Below are positions 32,771 through 48,538 of a stretch of DNA of 64,000 bases, piece by piece. The stretch is taken from assembly GCF_030013595.1 (NCBI RefSeq), contig NZ_CP122768.1; one strand, 5' to 3'. The notes under the pieces were generated by a model that saw only the letters and a program-made list of their open reading frames with translations, did not search any database and was not told the DNA's origin. Position 1 is the first letter of the stretch; each line of letters opens with the position of its first letter. Made by a program: the position numbers and the translations under genes. The DNA is from Escherichia coli. GTDB taxonomy: Bacteria > Pseudomonadota > Gammaproteobacteria > Enterobacterales > Enterobacteriaceae.

Positions 32771-34114
32771 ATGCATGTGCTTAACATTCTCTGGGTGGTA
32801 TTCGGCATTGGTCTGATGCTGGTACTGAATTTGAAGTTCAAAATCAATTCAATGGTGGCTTTGTTGGTGGCGGCGCTGTCCGTCGGGATGCTGGCGGGCA
32901 TGGATTTGATGTCGCTGCTGCACACCATGAAAGCGGGCTTCGGCAACACGCTGGGGGAACTGGCTATCATCGTGGTGTTCGGTGCGGTCATCGGTAAATT
33001 GATGGTCGACTCCGGCGCGGCGCACCAGATAGCGCATACGCTGCTGGCGCGTCTCGGTCTGCGCTATGTACAGCTGTCGGTGATTATCATCGGCCTGATT
33101 TTCGGTCTGGCGATGTTTTATTAAGTGGCCTTTATCATGTTAGCGCCGCTGGTTATTGTTATTGCCGCCGAAGCTAAAATTCCGTTCCTGAAACTGGCGA
33201 TCCCGGCAGTAGCAGCTGCCACTACCGCACATTCACTGTTCCCACCGCAGCCGGGTCCGGTGGCGCTGGTGAATGCTTATGGCGCGGATATGGGGATGGT
33301 TTATATCTATGGCGTACTGGTGACGATCCCAAGTGTCATCTGCGCAGGTCTGATCCTGCCGAAGTTCCTCGGCAATCTTGAGCGCCCAACGCCATCATTC
33401 CTGAAAGCAGATCAACCGGTAGATATGAATAATCTGCCCTCTTTCGGCGTTTCGATTCTGGTGCCGCTGATCCCGGCGATCATTATGATCTCTACCACCA
33501 TCGCCAATATCTGGCTGGTAAAAGATACCCCTGCCTGGGAAGTGGTTAACTTTATCGGTTCCTCGCCGATTGCAATGTTTATTGCGATGGTGGTTGCATT
33601 CGTACTCTTCGGCACCGCGCGCGGGCACGATATGCAGTGGGTGATGAACGCTTTTGAAAGCGCGGTGAAGAGTATTGCAATGGTGATTCTGATCATCGGT
33701 GCGGGTGGCGTGCTGAAGCAGACCATCATCGACACCGGCATTGGCGACACCATCGGCATGTTGATGTCCCACGGCAATATCTCGCCCTACATCATGGCAT
33801 GGCTGATCACCGTACTGATTCGTCTGGCGACGGGTCAGGGTGTCGTTTCGGCGATGACCGCTGCCGGGATTATCAGTGCAGCAATCCTTGATCCAGCAAC
33901 TGGTCAGCTGGTTGGCGTGAATCCGGCGCTGCTGGTACTGGCGACGGCTGCGGGTTCCAACACCCTCACCCACATTAACGATGCATCTTTCTGGTTGTTC
34001 AAAGGTTACTTTGACCTGTCAGTAAAAGATACGTTGAAAACCTGGGGTCTGCTGGAGCTGGTCAACTCCGTGGTTGGGCTGATTATTGTGCTGATTATTA
34101 GCATGGTAGCGTAA
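32771..34114 (+). pseudogene. gntP: GntP-family gluconate/fructuronate permease interrupted by an in-frame TAA
   Basis: Track ORFs 32771..33124 and 33125..34114 are in one frame; the only break is TAA at 33122..33124 (...[15 protein letters not shown]...). Combined length 447 codons, as expected for GntP. Confidence 0.8.
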
Positions 34115-36341: not shown

Positions 36342-38978
36342 TTAACGACATTCAGCTGATAGCTGGGTTAATAACTGCTGCTGACTCTCTGGTGGCAGTT
36401 GATAATTGGCGACACAATGAGCATTTTCCTCTTCTCCCCATTTCACCTGAACTTTTCCCGCTAGAGGCATTCCGCTGAGGTAAACCTGACCATTATCCGC
36501 AACAATGCCGCTACTCTGGCTACTCTCTGATGTCACCATCGCCCCAAACGGCAGCGGCTTATTATTGTGGGTTAGCGTCATGAGCAGTTTTATCCCAACG
36601 CGCGCTTTAAACTCTGCTCGCACGATCGCTCCACGAGTGGGAACAACGTTAGCGACCGCGTTATCTAAATCGACGTTATCAGCCAGGGTATTGGTATCCA
36701 GCGCCACTCTGTTTTCCCGATATTCAGTGGCATAAGGCAGCACGGCATAACCGCGCCAGTCGGTACGCACCCCCGTCTGGTTTTCGACTTTTGCATCTTT
36801 TGCGCCAGGCGCTTTAACAAGCACCACCGTATCGTTTAACGGCTGCCCCAGCGTTACGCCATTGGCATGAGCCAGTACCCCACCGCTGACTCCATAATAG
36901 AGCTGCTTAATATCATCGCTATGGCTGTAACCGATGTTGGCATTGCCGTAACCACCGCGATAATTCAGCGTGGCGTAGCCTGTGCTTCCGCTATTACCAT
37001 CGCCTCCCCCGGCATAGCCGGTTTGCACGCTATAGCTGAGGTTGTTGTCTTCCAGCAACGTACCGTATACACCGGCCAGATTGGTCATCCGACCGTTGAG
37101 ATCGTGTGACATGCTGTAGCTGGCACTGGCATGTCGCCACTGAGATTTACTGTCAGAACGCAGCCAGTGGCTGAAAGGAATATTGACGTTAAGCGCTAAC
37201 ATCTGATCCCGTCCTTTTTGCCAGGCGTTTTTCGTCAGGCTATAGCTGAGCGTCCAGTTGATATCTTCGAATGCAGTATTTAAACCAGCCTGGAATTGCT
37301 CATCGACATTACTCGTTCCCCAATAAGTTTGATGGCTACCACTCAAATACAGTGTTGATGTGCGCCCGAGTTGCTGAGTAACGGTGAGTTGTAATTTCCC
37401 GCGTTTGTTATAAGCGAGATTGTAATAGTCGGTGAATTTCGGCTTAACCTGAATAACACCATCCTGTGTTTCGATGTTGTAGCCATTCATTCGACTGTAT
37501 GTTGTATCAGCGAAATTAAAATACCCACTGGTCGAATAACGGTAACCCACTAACTGAATATTCGTGCCTGATTCATTGAGCGATTTGTTATAGAGAAAAC
37601 GCACCGATTGTCCGTCATGCTGACTGTCATCGGGAAGTGTGGAATTAGCCTGCGTCATATCCACAGACAGAGCGCCCAGTGCCCCCATGTTTTTCCCGAT
37701 ACCGAAATTAAAAGCACGATAACGATCCGCCAGTTGCGTTCCACCATATATTGTCCAGCCAGCCGGAAGGCCGTGGAGTAATGTACTCTGGAAAAAGCGA
37801 GGTTTTTCCTGCTGCGCATTTCCACTACGGTATTCTCCTGCCGTAATGGAATAACGAGTATGTCCTTCCCGTTGCAAAAGCGGGACTGACGAATAGGGTA
37901 CGGTAAAGATCTGCGTGCTGCCGTCAGCCTCTTTAATCGTTACCTGCAAGTCACCACTATTACCTGCGGCATAGATATCGTTGATGGTAAAAGGCCCCGG
38001 TGGCACCGTACTATTATAAATGTCATACCCATTTTGTTTAATAGTGACCTGTGCAGTACCACGAGCAATACCGTGGATCACCGGGGCAAATCCTCTTTGG
38101 CTATCGGGTAACATATTGTCATCTGAGGCCAATTGTGCGCCGCGAAAGTTAATACCATCGAAAATATCGCCCTGGGTATAACCATCACCCAGCGTCAGCC
38201 GGGAACGTAACGGAATTATGTCTCGCTCAAGCCAGGTATTGATATGCTGCCATTTATTTTTGCTACCTGATGAACTGTCGTTACTGTTATAACTCCAGGT
38301 GGTATTGTCGCGTAAACGCCACGCACCAATATTTAGCCCACTCTGTAGGTTTAAATATGCATAATGGCTGTTACTACCAATCCGATTCTGTACACTATTT
38401 CCGCTGAAATTATAATTGAGCAAGCCGGCATTAATACCGGGATCCCACAACTCAGGAGGAATATATCCACGCGCGCGATTACTCATAAATGCCTGAGGGA
38501 TCGTCAGGTTGAGTCGCTGCTGACCAACATCTAAATGCGCAGTAGCGTCATGGATCATTGAGGTTAATGGCACGCAGGCATCATCCGCCAGCAGATTCAT
38601 ACCGGAGACAGAAGCCGTATTCAGCCCCATACTGGCAAGTTGCGCGCGTGTCAGGCAGGGAACAATCCCTTGTTCACTGTCGCCCGTGTTAAATGTGACA
38701 TCACGCGTTGCCATATAACCATTATTCAAATAGATATCGACGCGATACGTCCCTGGCGGTAATTCTTGCCCATTTTCAAAACGCGATAAATCGGCCACAG
38801 CCTGGGGATCATCCGCTAAAAAGCGCGGATTAAAATAGAGTTCGGCAGATGACAAAGGTGCCTGTGCGGCAAAAGCACAGGCGACAAAGAGCCGGACAAA
38901 AAGACCAGCCAAACGATGCTTACGAACATGCAAGCATTGTGTGTTTCGCTGGTAAAGTCTTAAATTCAGATATGACAT
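36342..38978 (-). CDS. fimD: Fimbrial outer-membrane usher FimD
   Basis: 878-aa usher-family ORF. Confidence 0.95.
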   Translation of the reverse strand: MSYLNLRLYQRNTQCLHVRKHRLAGLFVRLFVACAFAAQAPLSSAELYFNPRFLADDPQAVADLSRFENGQELPPGTYRVDIYLNNGYMATRDVTFNTGDSEQGIVPCLTRAQLASMGLNTASVSGMNLLADDACVPLTSMIHDATAHLDVGQQRLNLTIPQAFMSNRARGYIPPELWDPGINAGLLNYNFSGNSVQNRIGSNSHYAYLNLQSGLNIGAWRLRDNTTWSYNSNDSSSGSKNKWQHINTWLERDIIPLRSRLTLGDGYTQGDIFDGINFRGAQLASDDNMLPDSQRGFAPVIHGIARGTAQVTIKQNGYDIYNSTVPPGPFTINDIYAAGNSGDLQVTIKEADGSTQIFTVPYSSVPLLQREGHTRYSITAGEYRSGNAQQEKPRFFQSTLLHGLPAGWTIYGGTQLADRYRAFNFGIGKNMGALGALSVDMTQANSTLPDDSQHDGQSVRFLYNKSLNESGTNIQLVGYRYSTSGYFNFADTTYSRMNGYNIETQDGVIQVKPKFTDYYNLAYNKRGKLQLTVTQQLGRTSTLYLSGSHQTYWGTSNVDEQFQAGLNTAFEDINWTLSYSLTKNAWQKGRDQMLALNVNIPFSHWLRSDSKSQWRHASASYSMSHDLNGRMTNLAGVYGTLLEDNNLSYSVQTGYAGGGDGNSGSTGYATLNYRGGYGNANIGYSHSDDIKQLYYGVSGGVLAHANGVTLGQPLNDTVVLVKAPGAKDAKVENQTGVRTDWRGYAVLPYATEYRENRVALDTNTLADNVDLDNAVANVVPTRGAIVRAEFKARVGIKLLMTLTHNNKPLPFGAMVTSESSQSSGIVADNGQVYLSGMPLAGKVQVKWGEEENAHCVANYQLPPESQQQLLTQLSAECR

Positions 38979-39044
38979 TATTCCTCCGGTTTAAAATCAC
39001 CCGGCAGTCAATTCTTTTTATTCAGGCGAAAAATTCCCCCTGCG

Positions 39045-39770
39045 TTATTCCATTACGCCTGTCATTTTGGGGGTAAGTGCGCCATAATCATTTATTGTTC
39101 GGTAAGTAATATTGCTTCCTGCATCAGAAGGCAATTTAACCGTGCTTTCGCCCATTGGAGGCACCAATGCATTTTCAAGAACCCGGGTTCCGGCATTCAA
39201 CTCTGTTACCGTCAGGTAATAGGGTGTCGGGTTAATCAGCGTCAGAGAATTCGCGCTACGACGAAATCTTAATTTTTCTGCGGCCTGATCGGGTGGCAAC
39301 GCTAATTTAGCCGGGCGATAGTACAGTTTAATGCGGCTGATAATTGCGAGCTGTAGCGTATTCTCAGTCAATTTTGATTTATCCATTGACGGAATCGCTT
39401 TAACGTTCATCCAGAATAAACTTTCCCGATCCTGTGGCAATTGGTTATTTGTTGCATCAAGAATACGCAAGGTATTCTCTTTTTTTCCCTTCATCGCAAA
39501 CAGAGGAGGCGTCACGATAAAACGACCATCCTTTACACCATCGGCATTTTCCACCCATGATTGAATTAAATAGGTGCTATTTTCATCATTATTTGTCACG
39601 GCAAGTTGCACTTGTTTTTGCCCTGCCGGATAAATTACGCGAGTCGCACCTAAGGCCACTCCCGCTTCAGCGCGTCCGGCAACCATCATTGCCATGAACA
39701 TCAGGATACCTGCCAGCAAGCAGAATGTTATTTCCTGCGATTTCCTTACATTGACGTTTTTATTACTCAC
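39045..39770 (-). CDS. fimC: Periplasmic fimbrial chaperone FimC
   Basis: 241-aa PapD-like chaperone ORF. Confidence 0.95.
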   Translation of the reverse strand: MSNKNVNVRKSQEITFCLLAGILMFMAMMVAGRAEAGVALGATRVIYPAGQKQVQLAVTNNDENSTYLIQSWVENADGVKDGRFIVTPPLFAMKGKKENTLRILDATNNQLPQDRESLFWMNVKAIPSMDKSKLTENTLQLAIISRIKLYYRPAKLALPPDQAAEKLRFRRSANSLTLINPTPYYLTVTELNAGTRVLENALVPPMGESTVKLPSDAGSNITYRTINDYGALTPKMTGVME

Positions 39771-39806
39771 TGTCCTGTTCCTGTTATCACATTATCTGCT
39801 GAACAA

Positions 39807-40346
39807 TTACTGATAGGTTAAAGAGAACCAGGCCTGGGCATTGGCGATGCCGCCAGTAACCCGACGCCCGGTAGCACGATATTTGGCGATGAAATGTAGC
39901 GAAGTAGAGCCTGAGTAAAGCCGTTTCCAGTTTGCTGGAGGACGATTAATCGGTACGAGGTTTCCTTCATCATCAAATAACGCTACGCCAATATTTGTGG
40001 CTATCCCTGGCCCCTCTCCCACGGAAAGCACATCCGGATTTTTACCATCCGCGACACCGTGAAACGCCACACCCACACGTTCACTCACCACCGTGCTACA
40101 TTCCCGTAAATGAATAACAAAAGGCACCGGTGCGCTATCTTCCCCTACCGCATGAAACCGGTTACTGCTGATTTGCCCCATATTGACCGTCATTTGTTTA
40201 TCACCAGCTTCAACTCGGCAAGTTTCCGCAATAATGACGCCCTGAAATTGCATATTTCCGCCGGGCAGCGTGGTATTCCATTTATTTCCGGCCAGAGCAA
40301 ACATTGGCAGCAACGACGCTAATAGAAATAATCTCTTCCTTTTCAT
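39807..40346 (-). CDS. fimI: Fimbrial protein FimI
   Basis: Pilin-like ORF; start chosen at [12 protein letters not shown] (179 aa) although the frame is open further upstream to 40478. Confidence 0.85.
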
Positions 40347-40410
40347 CGTTATTTTTATCGCACAAGGGTGGGCATCCCTGCCCGTAATGACGTCCCTGAA
40401 CCTGGGTAGG

Positions 40411-40959
40411 TTATTGATACTGAACCTTGAAGGTCGCATCCGCATTAGCTGCGCCAGGGGTTGCGGCACCGGTTGCAAAATAACGCGCCTGGAACGGAAT
40501 GGTGTTGGTTCCGTTATTCAGGGTTGTTTCTGAACTAAATGTCGCACCGTCCAGCGCCAGCGCAGCACCCGTTCTGTCCAGGATCTGCACACCAACGTTT
40601 GTTGCGCTACCCGCAGCTGAACTCTGCAGAGCCAGTACATCAGTATGCGTAGCATCAATTGCCGTACCTAAGAAGGCAACAGCGGCTTTTGTGGCAACAG
40701 TGGTATCGCAATCATTCAGCTGAATGTTAAAACCAACGGCAGAGCTGGTTGCTCCAGCCTGCTTCAGGCTAGCGGTACGAACCTGGCCCAACTGAACGGT
40801 TTGATCAACAGAGCCTGCATCAACTGCGCAAGCGGCGTTAACAACTTCCCCTTTAAAGTGAACGGTCCCACCATTTACCGTCGTAGTATCGGCCAGAGCC
40901 GCTGCGGAACTGAGGGACAGAGCCGACAGAACAACGATTGCCAGAGTTTTAATTTTCAT
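40411..40959 (-). CDS. fimA: Type 1 fimbrial major subunit FimA
   Basis: [26 protein letters not shown]... (182 aa from this Met). Confidence 0.95.
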
Positions 40960-41078
40960 GCTGCTTTCCTTTAAAAAAACTATTTCTAAATCGACATGGG
41001 CAGTCGTTCTGTACACTTTGTTTTGTCAACGAGTTTGACTGCCAACACTGCACAGTTTTCCCCCAAAAGATGAAACAT

Positions 41079-41392
41079 TTGGGGCCATTTTGACTCATAG
41101 AGGAAAGCATCGCGCACAAACTTTTTCAGTTTATTTGTTGGCTTAATATTCTATTGTTATCTTTATTTATAGATTTTTATATTGCATGATGTGGTTTTTG
41201 GAGAGAAGAATGAGGAAGATGCGTCGAGCCACAGAAACGTTAGCTTTACATATAGCGGAGGTGATGTGAAATTAATTTGCAAGAGAAATAATTTACATAT
41301 CAAACAGTTAGATGCTTTTTGTCGTTTTTTAATATTTTTATGCTTGAGAAAAAATACGTAACTTATTTATGATATGGACAGTTTGGCCCCAA
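41079..41392. promoter_or_regulatory. fimS: fimS invertible phase-variation switch (314 bp between 9-bp inverted repeats)
   Basis: TTGGGGCCA at 41079..41087 and its reverse complement TGGCCCCAA at 41384..41392, located between fimA and fimE; spacing of exactly 314 bp matches the described fim switch. Confidence 0.9.
41344..41373 (+). promoter_or_regulatory. Sigma70-like promoter inside fimS (TTGAGA-18 bp-TATGAT), reading toward fimE
   Basis: Hexamers read directly from sequence at 41344..41349 and 41368..41373; predicted start about 41380, immediately before the fimE-proximal inverted repeat. Confidence 0.5.
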
Positions 41393-41438
41393 TTGTCTTG
41401 TATTTATTTGTTTTTGCCTTTGCTATCAATAAGTTAAA

Positions 41439-42035
41439 TTAAACCTCTTCTCTTTTTAATTTTTCGTTTATGAGATTATTTCTTTCCCATAATCCGGCAA
41501 AACGAGCAGCATTACTGGCGGTATAACGCACTGTATGGCGAATATTTCGATGCCCGAGATAATCCTGAATTAAACGGGTATCTGCACCACGCTCCGCCAG
41601 TTCATAACCGCAAGCATGCCTTAACATATGAGGATGAGTCTGCGTTACGGTTCCAGCTTCAATGCCGGCATCGCGAATAATGCGATAGGCCTGCTGGCGA
41701 GAAAGCCGACTCCCGCGGCGAGAAATAAATATAGCGTCGGTCCGGTCAGCGCCTTTCCAGTTAGCACGTTCCTGGGTCCAGCGTTCCACGGCTTCACGCT
41801 CATCAAAACGTAACGGGTGAACGGTAGAAAATCCGTTCTTCAGTCGGCGAATATTTATTCGACCTTCATTAAGGTCAAGATCCTGATAATGCAGATCAAG
41901 CAGTTCACTAATACGCATCCCATGCCGATATGCCAACAGAATAAGACAATAATCTCTGGCTCCCGTTGCCCCGTAACAAACCGCCTGCATCATGGCCTGA
42001 ACTTCTTTACCGGTAAGATAACGACGTTTACTCAC
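41439..42035 (-). CDS. fimE: Tyrosine recombinase FimE (fim switch ON-to-OFF)
   Basis: 198-aa integrase-family ORF with the R..H..R..Y catalytic region (HPHMLRHACGYELA...LGHRNIRHTVRYT). Confidence 0.95.
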   Translation of the reverse strand: MSKRRYLTGKEVQAMMQAVCYGATGARDYCLILLAYRHGMRISELLDLHYQDLDLNEGRINIRRLKNGFSTVHPLRFDEREAVERWTQERANWKGADRTDAIFISRRGSRLSRQQAYRIIRDAGIEAGTVTQTHPHMLRHACGYELAERGADTRLIQDYLGHRNIRHTVRYTASNAARFAGLWERNNLINEKLKREEV

Positions 42036-42512
42036 AATAGTAGTACTCCTGACTGAGATATATTTGAATGAATACCTATAGGAAACCTCAATCGGTCAAA
42101 ATTAGCCCAATAGATAAAAAGATAACCACACACGAAGTGATGTGGCTATCAGTCAATTACATTAAATATCATACAAAAATAAAATATCACCGATGTGACA
42201 ACATCTATTTTCATTGATTTGATTCAATATAACAATAGATTGCAGAAGATTAACTTCCAGTTGCTTAAAAAATAAAGAAAAAAGTGTGGAAACAGGAGAA
42301 TTTAAGTGATGTGTAAATTTATGAATGATTTTGTTTATTTATTTTGAAGAACATAAACCATTGGATTTTGTATGGGTATGGTTAACTTAATGTTTATTAT
42401 GATAATTAAGAATCACACTTACAATAACATCAATTAATAAATGGTTAATCATTTTTGATATATCGTAAGAATAATGTAGTTTTTAACACCATCCCTGGTA
42501 TCTCGACTATCT

Positions 42513-43115
42513 CTATAAAACAGCGTGACGCTGTCGTCCTCTGGCTCTATCCCAGATGCCGTAAAAACGCCCTGCATTGCTGGCGGTATACCAGACAGTA
42601 TGACGAATATTGCGATGCCCAAGATAATCCTGGATAAGTCGCGTATCTATTCCCATATTCGCCAAAGCAAAACCACACGAATGGCGTAACATGTGCGGAT
42701 GAATCTCCAGTGACAACCCGGCATTACCACCAGAAGTCGAGATAATATGGTAAAACTGTTGCCGAGAAAGCGGATTCCCCTTACGTGATAAAAATACCCA
42801 CTCGCTCTCAGCATGCGGATACGAAGTACGGATACTCAACCAGTTTTTTAAAGCCTGAACTTCTTTGTTCAATAGCGGGTGCGTTGTTGAAAAGCCTTTT
42901 TTTAATCGATGGATATATATACACTTTGCCTTAAGATCAATATCCGAAATCCTCAATCGACAAATTTCACTCGCCCGGAAACCATGAATAAAACAAAGCA
43001 AAGTCAGACAATAATTACGTGCTGCATGAGGCCCGGTATTTGCTGCTTTAAGGAGTGACTCGATTTCACTATGGGTAAGGAAGTTCCTTTTTTTGTTATC
43101 AGCCTTATTCTTCAT
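42513..43115 (-). CDS. fimB: Tyrosine recombinase FimB (fim switch, both directions)
   Basis: 200-aa paralogue of FimE (HPHMLRHSCGFALA...LGHRNIRHTVWYT). Confidence 0.95.
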   Translation of the reverse strand: MKNKADNKKRNFLTHSEIESLLKAANTGPHAARNYCLTLLCFIHGFRASEICRLRISDIDLKAKCIYIHRLKKGFSTTHPLLNKEVQALKNWLSIRTSYPHAESEWVFLSRKGNPLSRQQFYHIISTSGGNAGLSLEIHPHMLRHSCGFALANMGIDTRLIQDYLGHRNIRHTVWYTASNAGRFYGIWDRARGRQRHAVL

Positions 43116-44127
43116 CGTTTTCCCTTATAATTACAGACGCGCACTAGCTGTGCTGGGTTAGCAATAAACCAACAATTTAATCCTGATTATGTTTATAAAA
43201 GCGAACGTTTGCTTAATAACTAACGTAAGTGAACCAGTTCTTCTGAGCGAACTTAAATGGAGTAGCGATAGTTACTTATAATAACTTTGCCATACAAACG
43301 CCATGCTCTTGCATGCTATGTACCTTTATATATTTATCAATCTGATACGAATCTAATAATAACCCTCATCATTAATGCAACTAATCTTATCTATATATCA
43401 TGTGATATGTTCTGTAACAAGTAAAATCAACATAAAAAATTCAGCAAAATTTAATATTCGTTCAACTAGCCGTCTCACATATGACATTATTAGTCAACTG
43501 CATTTGCCACAAAATGGCTATTTCATGGAACGCAGTAATTTCTTAGTGGCTATTATCAAGCTAATTCTTAGGTCCCTAGCGATTATTCCTGGCTGGTTCG
43601 TCAGTTTAGGTCATGAGATTGTTACATTCCTTTTTATCCTGGAGATATGGGGGAACGCAGGCGACGCTTTTTCATCTACATCCGTTGGTAAATATGGCTT
43701 TGGTCACTACGACTTAAACCCTCCTCAATCACAGCTACTCGCCGGGCGATACGGCAAACAAGCTAATTGAAACATCATCCTGAAAACACCAGCATCAACA
43801 AGCCTCTCCAGATCGACATCAGGAGTGACCAGTTACAAGCCACAAACCAAGAAACATATTTCATGATGAGAATTATGCTCAGCCTGATGGCGGGTAAACA
43901 CTTATTTTCACCAAGCTCACTGAGTTAGCTTGCAAAGCTTTCTTTGTTTAGATTCTAAATAAATTATTTATAAAACAGATAATTAAAAGAAAATCTTTAG
44001 TTTTTGAAGACCACCGCAAGTGTTCGTCTGGCTTCACATGGCATCTGCCTCTTAGAAAAAGATCGACATATTTTGTGACACGAATTGCAAATCTGGTTTT
44101 GTTGTATGGATTGCGTGATTTTTGATC

Positions 44128-44147
44128 TGGTATAACAGGTATAAAGG
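44128..44147. promoter_or_regulatory. Candidate NanR operator (tandem GGTATA repeats) upstream of nanC
   Basis: GGTATAACAGGTATAAAGGT lies about 420 bp upstream of nanC; NanR is known to bind repeated GGTATA hexamers. Confidence 0.55.
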
Positions 44148-44566
44148 TGCACCACGATAGTCAATGAGACTGGGCATCTCGTAATCTATGGCAAACATCA
44201 CTTCAGTTCTTTCACATCGGGTGATGAAAATGCACTTCAGTCTGAAAGGAATATGAAAATGAGATCAACAGACACTCTATTTTATGACTCTGGGTAAAAT
44301 GGATTGAGTAAGTGATATAGCTTACGAACATTCAAATCAATTAAACATCAGAAGAGATTTTATACTCAGGTATTTAATCTGGTTCTCTGTTTATTTAAAT
44401 AATGTGGAAAGAGAATTTTCACAGGAGACCTTATACAAAAAATATAAAATAAGCTACCCGTTGCCAAAGACACTATAAGCCTGGCAAAAAATATTACACA
44501 ACATAAATGCTAATTGTTTATGCGGGCTTTGTATTGCTTTCTGTATCCTACAAATGAGTGAAATTT

Positions 44567-45283
44567 ATGAAAAAGGCTAAAATACTTTCTGGCGTATTAT
44601 TACTGTGCTTTTCGTCACCATTAATTTCTCAGGCTGCGACACTGGACGTACGTGGTGGATATCGTAGCGGAAGCCATGCCTATGAGACTCGACTCAAAGT
44701 CAGTGAGGGATGGCAAAATGGATGGTGGGCAAGCATGGAAAGTAATACCTGGAATACCATTCATGATAATAAAAAGGAAAATGCCGCACTCAATGATGTT
44801 CAGGTTGAAGTTAATTACGCGATTAAACTTGATGATCAATGGACGGTGCGCCCGGGAATGTTAACGCATTTTAGCAGCAACGGCACACGCTACGGACCCT
44901 ACGTAAAACTGTCCTGGGACGCGACAAAAGATCTTAATTTTGGCATTCGCTATCGTTACGACTGGAAAGCTTACCGACAACAAGACTTATCCGGTGATAT
45001 GTCTCGTGATAACGTTCATCGTTGGGATGGATATGTCACTTACCATATTAATAGTGATTTCACCTTCGCATGGCAAACGACGCTATACAGCAAACAGAAC
45101 GATTATCGCTATGCAAACCATAAGAAATGGGCGACGGAAAATGCATTTGTTCTACAATACCATATGACGCCCGATATTACGCCATACATAGAATATGACT
45201 ACCTTGACCGTCAGGGTGTTTACAACGGCAGAGATAATTTATCGGAAAACAGTTATCGCATTGGTGTGTCATTTAAACTGTAG
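44567..45283 (+). CDS. nanC: KdgM-family outer-membrane sialic acid channel NanC
   Basis: ORF with start chosen at MKKAKILSGVLLLCFSSPLISQA (238 aa), aromatic C-terminus typical of beta-barrels. Confidence 0.9.
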   Translation: MKKAKILSGVLLLCFSSPLISQAATLDVRGGYRSGSHAYETRLKVSEGWQNGWWASMESNTWNTIHDNKKENAALNDVQVEVNYAIKLDDQWTVRPGMLTHFSSNGTRYGPYVKLSWDATKDLNFGIRYRYDWKAYRQQDLSGDMSRDNVHRWDGYVTYHINSDFTFAWQTTLYSKQNDYRYANHKKWATENAFVLQYHMTPDITPYIEYDYLDRQGVYNGRDNLSENSYRIGVSFKL

Positions 45284-47608: not shown

Positions 47609-48538
47609 TTGAACAGCAGAAAATTTGCGAGCATGATCGCAATTATTTCACTGCCAGGGATATCAATGGCTTCCAGTAAATCGCTACAGCAGGCAATTGC
47701 CAATATAAAAATCTGGCACAAGGGTGAACAGCGCGCGCCGCATAAGCCATTGTTATTGCTATACGTATTAGCGGGATACCTGAATGGACATCCGCGCCTT
47801 TTCGATTATGGATCGGAAATCTACGAACCTCTGCACAGTTTACTGGAACGTTTTGGGCCACAGCGTTCACAGTACCGACCTGATATGCCGTTCTGGCGAT
47901 TACAAGGCGACGGATTCTGGCAATTACACAATGCCGAGCTTTGCTCAACAGCAGGGAGCAGCCGACAACCACCAGTGAAGGAACTGATTGAATACCACGT
48001 TGCAGGCGGTTTCGATGAACAGCACTACGCCCTGGTAACTGGCAATAAAAAACTCATCAATACTCTGGCGCAACAGATACTCGAAGCGCACTTCACCGAG
48101 AGTATTCAGGAAGAAATTGCTGACGAGCTGGGTTTTGATCTCCAGCAAATCCGTAAACAGCGCGACCCGTTATTTCGCAAAAATGTATTACGCGCTTATA
48201 AATACCAGTGCGCGATATGTGGCTTTAATATGCGCCACGACGACGCCACCGTCGCGCTTGAAGCGGCGCATATAAAATGGAAACAGCACGGCGGTCCTTG
48301 TGAAATTCCTAATGGCCTAGCGCTTTGCGCAATTCACCATAAAGCCTTTGATAAAGGATCGATTGGCCTGGACGAAAATATGCGGGTACTGGTATCAGAT
48401 GCGGTAAACGGCGGAGGGATCGTTGAGAGATTATTCTGGGATTTTGACGGGAAAACTATTGCGTTGCCGCAGGTGCGTAAAAATTACCCTTATGAGGTGT
48501 TTGTTGAGTGGCATCGGAAAGAGGTTTTTAGGGGGTGA
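47609..48538 (+). CDS. HNH-endonuclease domain protein with uncharacterised N-terminal domain (possible type IV restriction-like enzyme)
   Basis: C-terminal HNH signature CAICGF...EAAHIKWKQHGGPCEIPNGLALCAIHHKAFD; N-terminal ~200 residues unassigned. Confidence 0.65.
   Translation: MNSRKFASMIAIISLPGISMASSKSLQQAIANIKIWHKGEQRAPHKPLLLLYVLAGYLNGHPRLFDYGSEIYEPLHSLLERFGPQRSQYRPDMPFWRLQGDGFWQLHNAELCSTAGSSRQPPVKELIEYHVAGGFDEQHYALVTGNKKLINTLAQQILEAHFTESIQEEIADELGFDLQQIRKQRDPLFRKNVLRAYKYQCAICGFNMRHDDATVALEAAHIKWKQHGGPCEIPNGLALCAIHHKAFDKGSIGLDENMRVLVSDAVNGGGIVERLFWDFDGKTIALPQVRKNYPYEVFVEWHRKEVFRG

Follow-up and report, generated by a model that had tools for sequence, protein, structure and literature searches.

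The fim switch of Escherichia coli, fimS, is a textbook system in which FimB inverts the element either way and FimE inverts it mainly in the ON-to-OFF direction, the two enzymes recombining within 9-bp repeats and binding the flanking half-sites, with IHF, Lrp, H-NS, and Fis influencing the inversion (PMC9993118, PMC11316696, PMC2636892). In the published model, the fimS promoter reads through the inverted repeat IRR into fimA in the ON orientation and is cut off from fimA in the OFF orientation. A Rho-dependent terminator in fimS is either joined to or parted from fimE, depending on the orientation, resulting in a feedback on FimE production (PMC9993118, PMC11316696, PMC2636892). FimE is described to be dominant in wild-type cells. 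The hyxS and ipuS elements, together with the recombinases FimX, IpuA, IpuB, and HbiF, belong to the same class, being promoters inverted by a tyrosine recombinase (PMC6458436), but are found at other loci and have other repeats than fimS.

The segment described here lies in a 64-kb E. coli window (the whole stretch of DNA that was analysed) and represents the canonical fim switch of E. coli, an already known element in its commonest assembled state. The gene order on the minus strand is fimB-fimE-fimS-fimA, as indicated by the open reading frames and the annotation of a relative. It places fimS within the 479-bp intergenic region between fimE and fimA, directly upstream of fimAICDFGH, and the open reading frames of fimI, fimC, fimD, fimF, fimG, and fimH were all found downstream of fimA. 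A 20-kb stretch of the window is 99.9% identical to two chromosomes of pig-faecal E. coli, where PGAP names all fim genes. The coordinates of the features are collected in Table 1.

Table 1. Features of the fim switch and its surroundings in the window.
Feature	Position	Strand	Remarks
fimS, 314-bp invertible element, OFF orientation	41079..41392		colinear with MG1655 fimS
IRR, 9-bp inverted repeat TTGGGGCCA adjoining the fimA side	41079..41087	+	exact match; invariant in 7 alleles
IRL, 9-bp inverted repeat TTGGGGCCA adjoining the fimE side	41384..41392	-	exact match; invariant in 7 diverse alleles
Presumed fimA promoter: -35 TTGAGA (41344..41349), 18-nt spacer, -10 TATGAT (41368..41373)	41344..41373	+	best sigma70-like site
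SnaBI site TACGTA, published orientation assay	41355..41360		sequence match
BstUI site CGCG, published orientation assay; near the fimA-proximal repeat in OFF	41111..41114		sequence match
HinfI site GACTC, other published orientation assays	41092..41096		sequence match
fimE, tyrosine recombinase, mainly ON-to-OFF	41439..42035	-	198-aa ORF; 100% identical to MG1655 FimE; annotated FimE in the nearest relative
fimB, tyrosine recombinase, both directions	42513..43115	-	200-aa ORF; 100% identical to MG1655 FimB; annotated FimB in the nearest relative
fimA, major type 1 fimbrial subunit, first gene of fimAICDFGH	40411..40959	-	182-aa product

The 9-bp sequence TTGGGGCCA occurs exactly twice in the window, and the two copies enclose the 314 bp, which agrees with the sequence-only reading of the locus as a 314-bp invertible element with both 9-bp repeats. 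When the whole window was shuffled 100 times, two or more chance matches to TTGGGGCCA arose 8 times; the specificity of the pair lies in its pairing, its spacing, and its position between fimE and fimA. With one mismatch allowed, no other plausible pair of fim-type repeats turned up in the window, and a tblastn search with FimB and FimE indicated that the window encodes no additional Fim-type recombinase. The Rfam scan of positions 38000..45000 did not match any family. An exact copy of the 35-nt FimR2 small RNA of MG1655 is located just downstream of fimA (40366..40400, minus strand).

The fimS of K-12 MG1655 (NC_000913.3, between fimE b4313 and fimA b4314) shares with the window the length of 314 bp, the inverted repeats, and the orientation. 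The promoter region, FimB, and FimE are identical between the two, and fimS is colinear without any indel, differing only by five single-nucleotide polymorphisms at positions 110, 114, 203, 218, and 278, counted from IRL, whereas FimA differs in 10 residues. This is the outcome of the alignment to reference fimS sequences that had been proposed along with the sequence-only reading. Between IRL and the fimE stop codon (41393..41438), the T-run of the window falls 2 bp short of the one in MG1655, and several substitutions are present. This region varies in other alleles too. In the published model of fimS, IHF site 1 adjoins IRL (PMC9993118, PMC11316696, PMC2636892).

The sequence-only reading had called the switch OFF because the only strong sigma70-like promoter in the element, TTGAGA-18-TATGAT, is directed toward fimE. 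The site holds up as the best candidate: it scores 10/12, which is the top sigma70-like match in positions 40900..42600, and points away from fimA, while the only other site inside fimS, TTGTTA-18-TATATT (41154..41183), also on the plus strand, reaches 9/12, and the fimA-directed minus strand of fimS has no sigma70-like site reaching the threshold. However, the motif by itself carries little evidential weight, a match of at least 10/12 having been obtained in 404 of 2,000 dinucleotide shuffles (20%) of fimS, which has a G+C content of 32%. The number of promoter-like sites in 40900..42600 likewise shows no enrichment, with 5 found versus 5.7 expected from the shuffles.

Given that a 10/12 match is not significant in such AT-rich DNA, one could ask whether the assembled orientation is really ON, with the true fimA promoter at another place in the element, directed toward fimA. 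We consider this exceedingly improbable. Besides the lack of a promoter-like site on the fimA-directed strand, the fragment patterns obtained by running two independent published restriction assays in silico are those of OFF. The SnaBI assay with the Inv-1/Inv-2 primer pair is described to yield fragments of 161 and 440 bp for OFF and 403 and 198 bp for ON (PMC4374849). The in silico PCR on the window gives a 602-bp amplicon, which SnaBI cuts into 160 and 442 bp, at a site that had been noted beforehand at about position 41355 together with the suggestion of this assay. The BstUI assay with the primers OL4 and OL20 is described to yield 539 and 187 bp for OFF and 433 and 293 bp for ON (PMC9993118), and the window yields 538 and 188 bp. 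After flipping positions 41088..41383 in silico, the fragments change to 404 and 198 bp for SnaBI and to 292 and 434 bp for BstUI, being the ON patterns, whereas MG1655, with which the window is colinear, gives the same OFF patterns as the window in both assays. The two digests refute the ON reading, which was rejected.

A further landmark points in the same direction. The primers for the Fis probe of PMC9993118 converge on positions 41060..41194 of the window, spanning IRR, and the Fis site of that probe was published as “promoter-distal” (PMC9993118). As the promoter-distal Fis end adjoins fimA in the window, the promoter end adjoins fimE, opposite to what the ON reading would need. For the HinfI orientation assay, fragments of 520 and 124 bp are described for ON and 405 and 239 bp for OFF (PMC11582573); these sizes discriminate the orientation only with the primer positions, and our orientation call rests on SnaBI and BstUI. 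Taken by these digests, the colinearity with MG1655, and the Fis landmark, fimS is in phase OFF in the window, as the sequence-only reading had it, and this evidence for the orientation is stronger than the promoter motif from which that reading started.

The TTGAGA and TATGAT hexamers are presumed to be the fimA promoter, PfimA, reportedly mapped by Olsen & Klemm 1994. A literature search for a paper giving the fimA -35 and -10 hexamers or the mapped start returned unrelated matches only. The site is found at the end of fimS opposite to the published “promoter-distal” Fis site, and its sequence in the window is the same as in MG1655. In seven aligned alleles, which diverge by up to about 5% in the rest of fimS, no variation occurs in either hexamer or in the sequence that runs from the -35 element across IRL to about 20 bp past it. 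The position and the conservation together suggest that TTGAGA-18-TATGAT functions as the fimA promoter, in which case the transcription start would be near position 41380.

The spacer between the hexamers is not of the same length in all strains. The urine isolate 1162T7 has a fimS of 313 bp with one A fewer in the A-run of the promoter spacer, which results in a spacer of 17 nt versus 18 nt in the window. A 17-nt spacer is closer to the sigma70 optimum than an 18-nt spacer. Seven more matches span 313 bp as judged from their records (H77, H112, and H114 to H118); these are mostly human isolates, and H77 is ATCC 25922.

We also observed a 12-nt inverted repeat, TAACTTATTTAT / ATCAATAAGTTA, with 92% complementarity, at positions 41359..41370 and 41425..41436 of the window. 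One arm is located in the fimS promoter spacer and the -10 element and the other outside fimS, near the fimE stop codon, so that the repeat exists only in the OFF orientation. It may be a chance occurrence in AT-rich DNA.

To see how the orientation is distributed in the species, the 661-bp fimA-fimS-fimE segment as assembled was searched against 5,426 complete E. coli genomes, 4,721 of which carry the segment; the other 705 show no match to it. The window's orientation (OFF) was found in 4,457 of the 4,721 genomes (about 94%), counting genomes with at least 80% of the query matched in one piece, and the exact flip (ON), found as a one-piece match to the query with fimS flipped in silico, in 248 (about 5%). 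The remaining 16 genomes have neither intact orientation, presumably due to insertions or deletions. The fimS element thus occurs in both orientations in nature, with the breakpoints at the inverted repeats. The reference genome of UTI89 is reported to be OFF too (PMC6458436).

Examples of ON-oriented elements are found in the isolate SC418 (NZ_LR778147.1) and the strain H6 (NZ_CP010170.1), which have the same inverted repeats and flanks and match the window at 311 to 312 of 314 positions after reverse-complementing. Unlike in the window, TTGAGA-18-TATGAT reads toward fimA in the ON-oriented genomes. In the two ON-oriented loci that we aligned (L003 and L004), the inversion covers precisely the stretch of fimS between the 9-bp repeats, the flanks being colinear, and the element is identical to the reverse complement of the window's fimS at 311 to 312 of 314 positions (312 for L003). 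Both carry the same FimE protein accession as the nearest OFF relative of the window, so the capture of the ON state is not explained by a loss of fimE.

The numbers also bear on whether the orientation reflects the majority state of the culture or an arbitrary choice of the assembler from a roughly balanced mixture of ON and OFF cells. Cultures are often heterogeneous for invertible elements (PMC6458436), which speaks for the latter, but an arbitrary choice should produce a roughly even split among the assemblies, whereas 4,457 versus 248 was observed, a split consistent with ON-to-OFF switching by FimE being dominant, as published. We rejected the arbitrary choice based on this split and consider it quite unlikely. 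With FimE dominant, most cells are expected to be OFF, which accounts for the 94:5 split. The assembly would then report the majority state, FimE driving most cells OFF, and the sequenced culture would be a mixed population with an OFF majority. Being found in about 94% of the assemblies with the region, OFF is the default for a strain with an intact fimE and tells little about the individual strain. The sequence-only reading had seen implications for type 1 fimbriation of the sequenced culture in the OFF orientation, which is overstated for the same reason.

An OFF orientation is also what a strain with a permanently locked switch would show, as in O157:H7 or in fimB-defective Shigella, and the IHF and Lrp factors lie outside the window. 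A switch locked OFF instead of a reversible OFF phase is nevertheless highly improbable here, given that FimB and FimE have their full length with 100% identity to the K-12 proteins, both inverted repeats are intact, and fimS has no indel compared to K-12. The allele is moreover a common one, being present with at least 99% identity in 1,061 genomes. The fimS of the O157:H7 strain EDL933 shares the locus, the inverted repeats, the promoter hexamers, and the assembled orientation with the window, but has only 298 bp, as 16 bp are deleted about 30 bp upstream of the -35 element. This O157:H7-type deletion leaves the switch locked in OFF. In the alignment, the window is gapless across the 16 bp missing from EDL933, so the deletion is absent. 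On these grounds, a locked switch was rejected, and the earlier statement that the switch is not deletion-locked can be upheld.

Since both the recombinases and the two repeats are intact, the switch is most likely competent, and nothing suggests a lock in cis. This evidence covers the cis sites and the recombinases in the window, with IHF, Lrp, H-NS, and Fis being outside of it. We infer that this strain really switches.

All results together, among which we found no contradicting evidence, almost certainly describe a canonical fimS in the OFF phase, with a most likely competent switch and an assembly that would have captured the majority state of a culture driven OFF by FimE. Mechanistically, fimS is a 314-bp segment with the presumed promoter for the type 1 fimbrial operon, inverted by the adjacent FimB and FimE. 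In the assembled OFF phase, the promoter end adjoins fimE and points away from fimA, and hence fimAICDFGH would not be transcribed from the fimS promoter.

In the OFF state, the fimS promoter runs convergent to fimE, with about 60 bp separating it from the fimE stop codon. This raises the possibility that a convergent or antisense transcript of the OFF state helps to set the FimE levels or, alternatively, that the window-specific variants, meaning the five single-nucleotide polymorphisms within fimS plus the 2-bp indel beside IRL, in the region of the IHF site 1 known from the literature, shift the switching bias of this lineage. We regard either of these as improbable, as a slim chance beside the canonical OFF switch; nothing unusual in the sequence suggests an antisense transcript or a shifted bias.

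Two observations concern the neighborhood of the fim locus. The gluconate permease gene gntP (32771..34114, plus strand) has an in-frame stop at codon 118 (33122..33124), and in the 99.9%-identical relative HCP5S3_I2, it is also a pseudogene with an “internal stop” according to PGAP. In the nearest relative (L002), positions 17667..18539, corresponding to about 47666..48538 on the plus strand of the window, are annotated as a phosphorothioated-DNA-binding restriction endonuclease, located downstream of nanC and nanM. The endonuclease is flanked by several gene fragments (of a sialate O-acetylesterase and an HNH endonuclease), an arrangement suggestive of a small variable island adjoining the fim/nan region.

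Judged by their sequences, the fim operon, its switch, and the recombinases all seem functional, and the OFF assembly is no sign of a fimbriation defect or of new biology. The main value of the finding is a point of annotation, as the RefSeq/PGAP features under every fimS match are “none”. It matters for the prediction of type 1 fimbrial expression from an assembly, given that the promoter is invertible and is assembled OFF here, as it is in about 94% of the genomes that carry the region.
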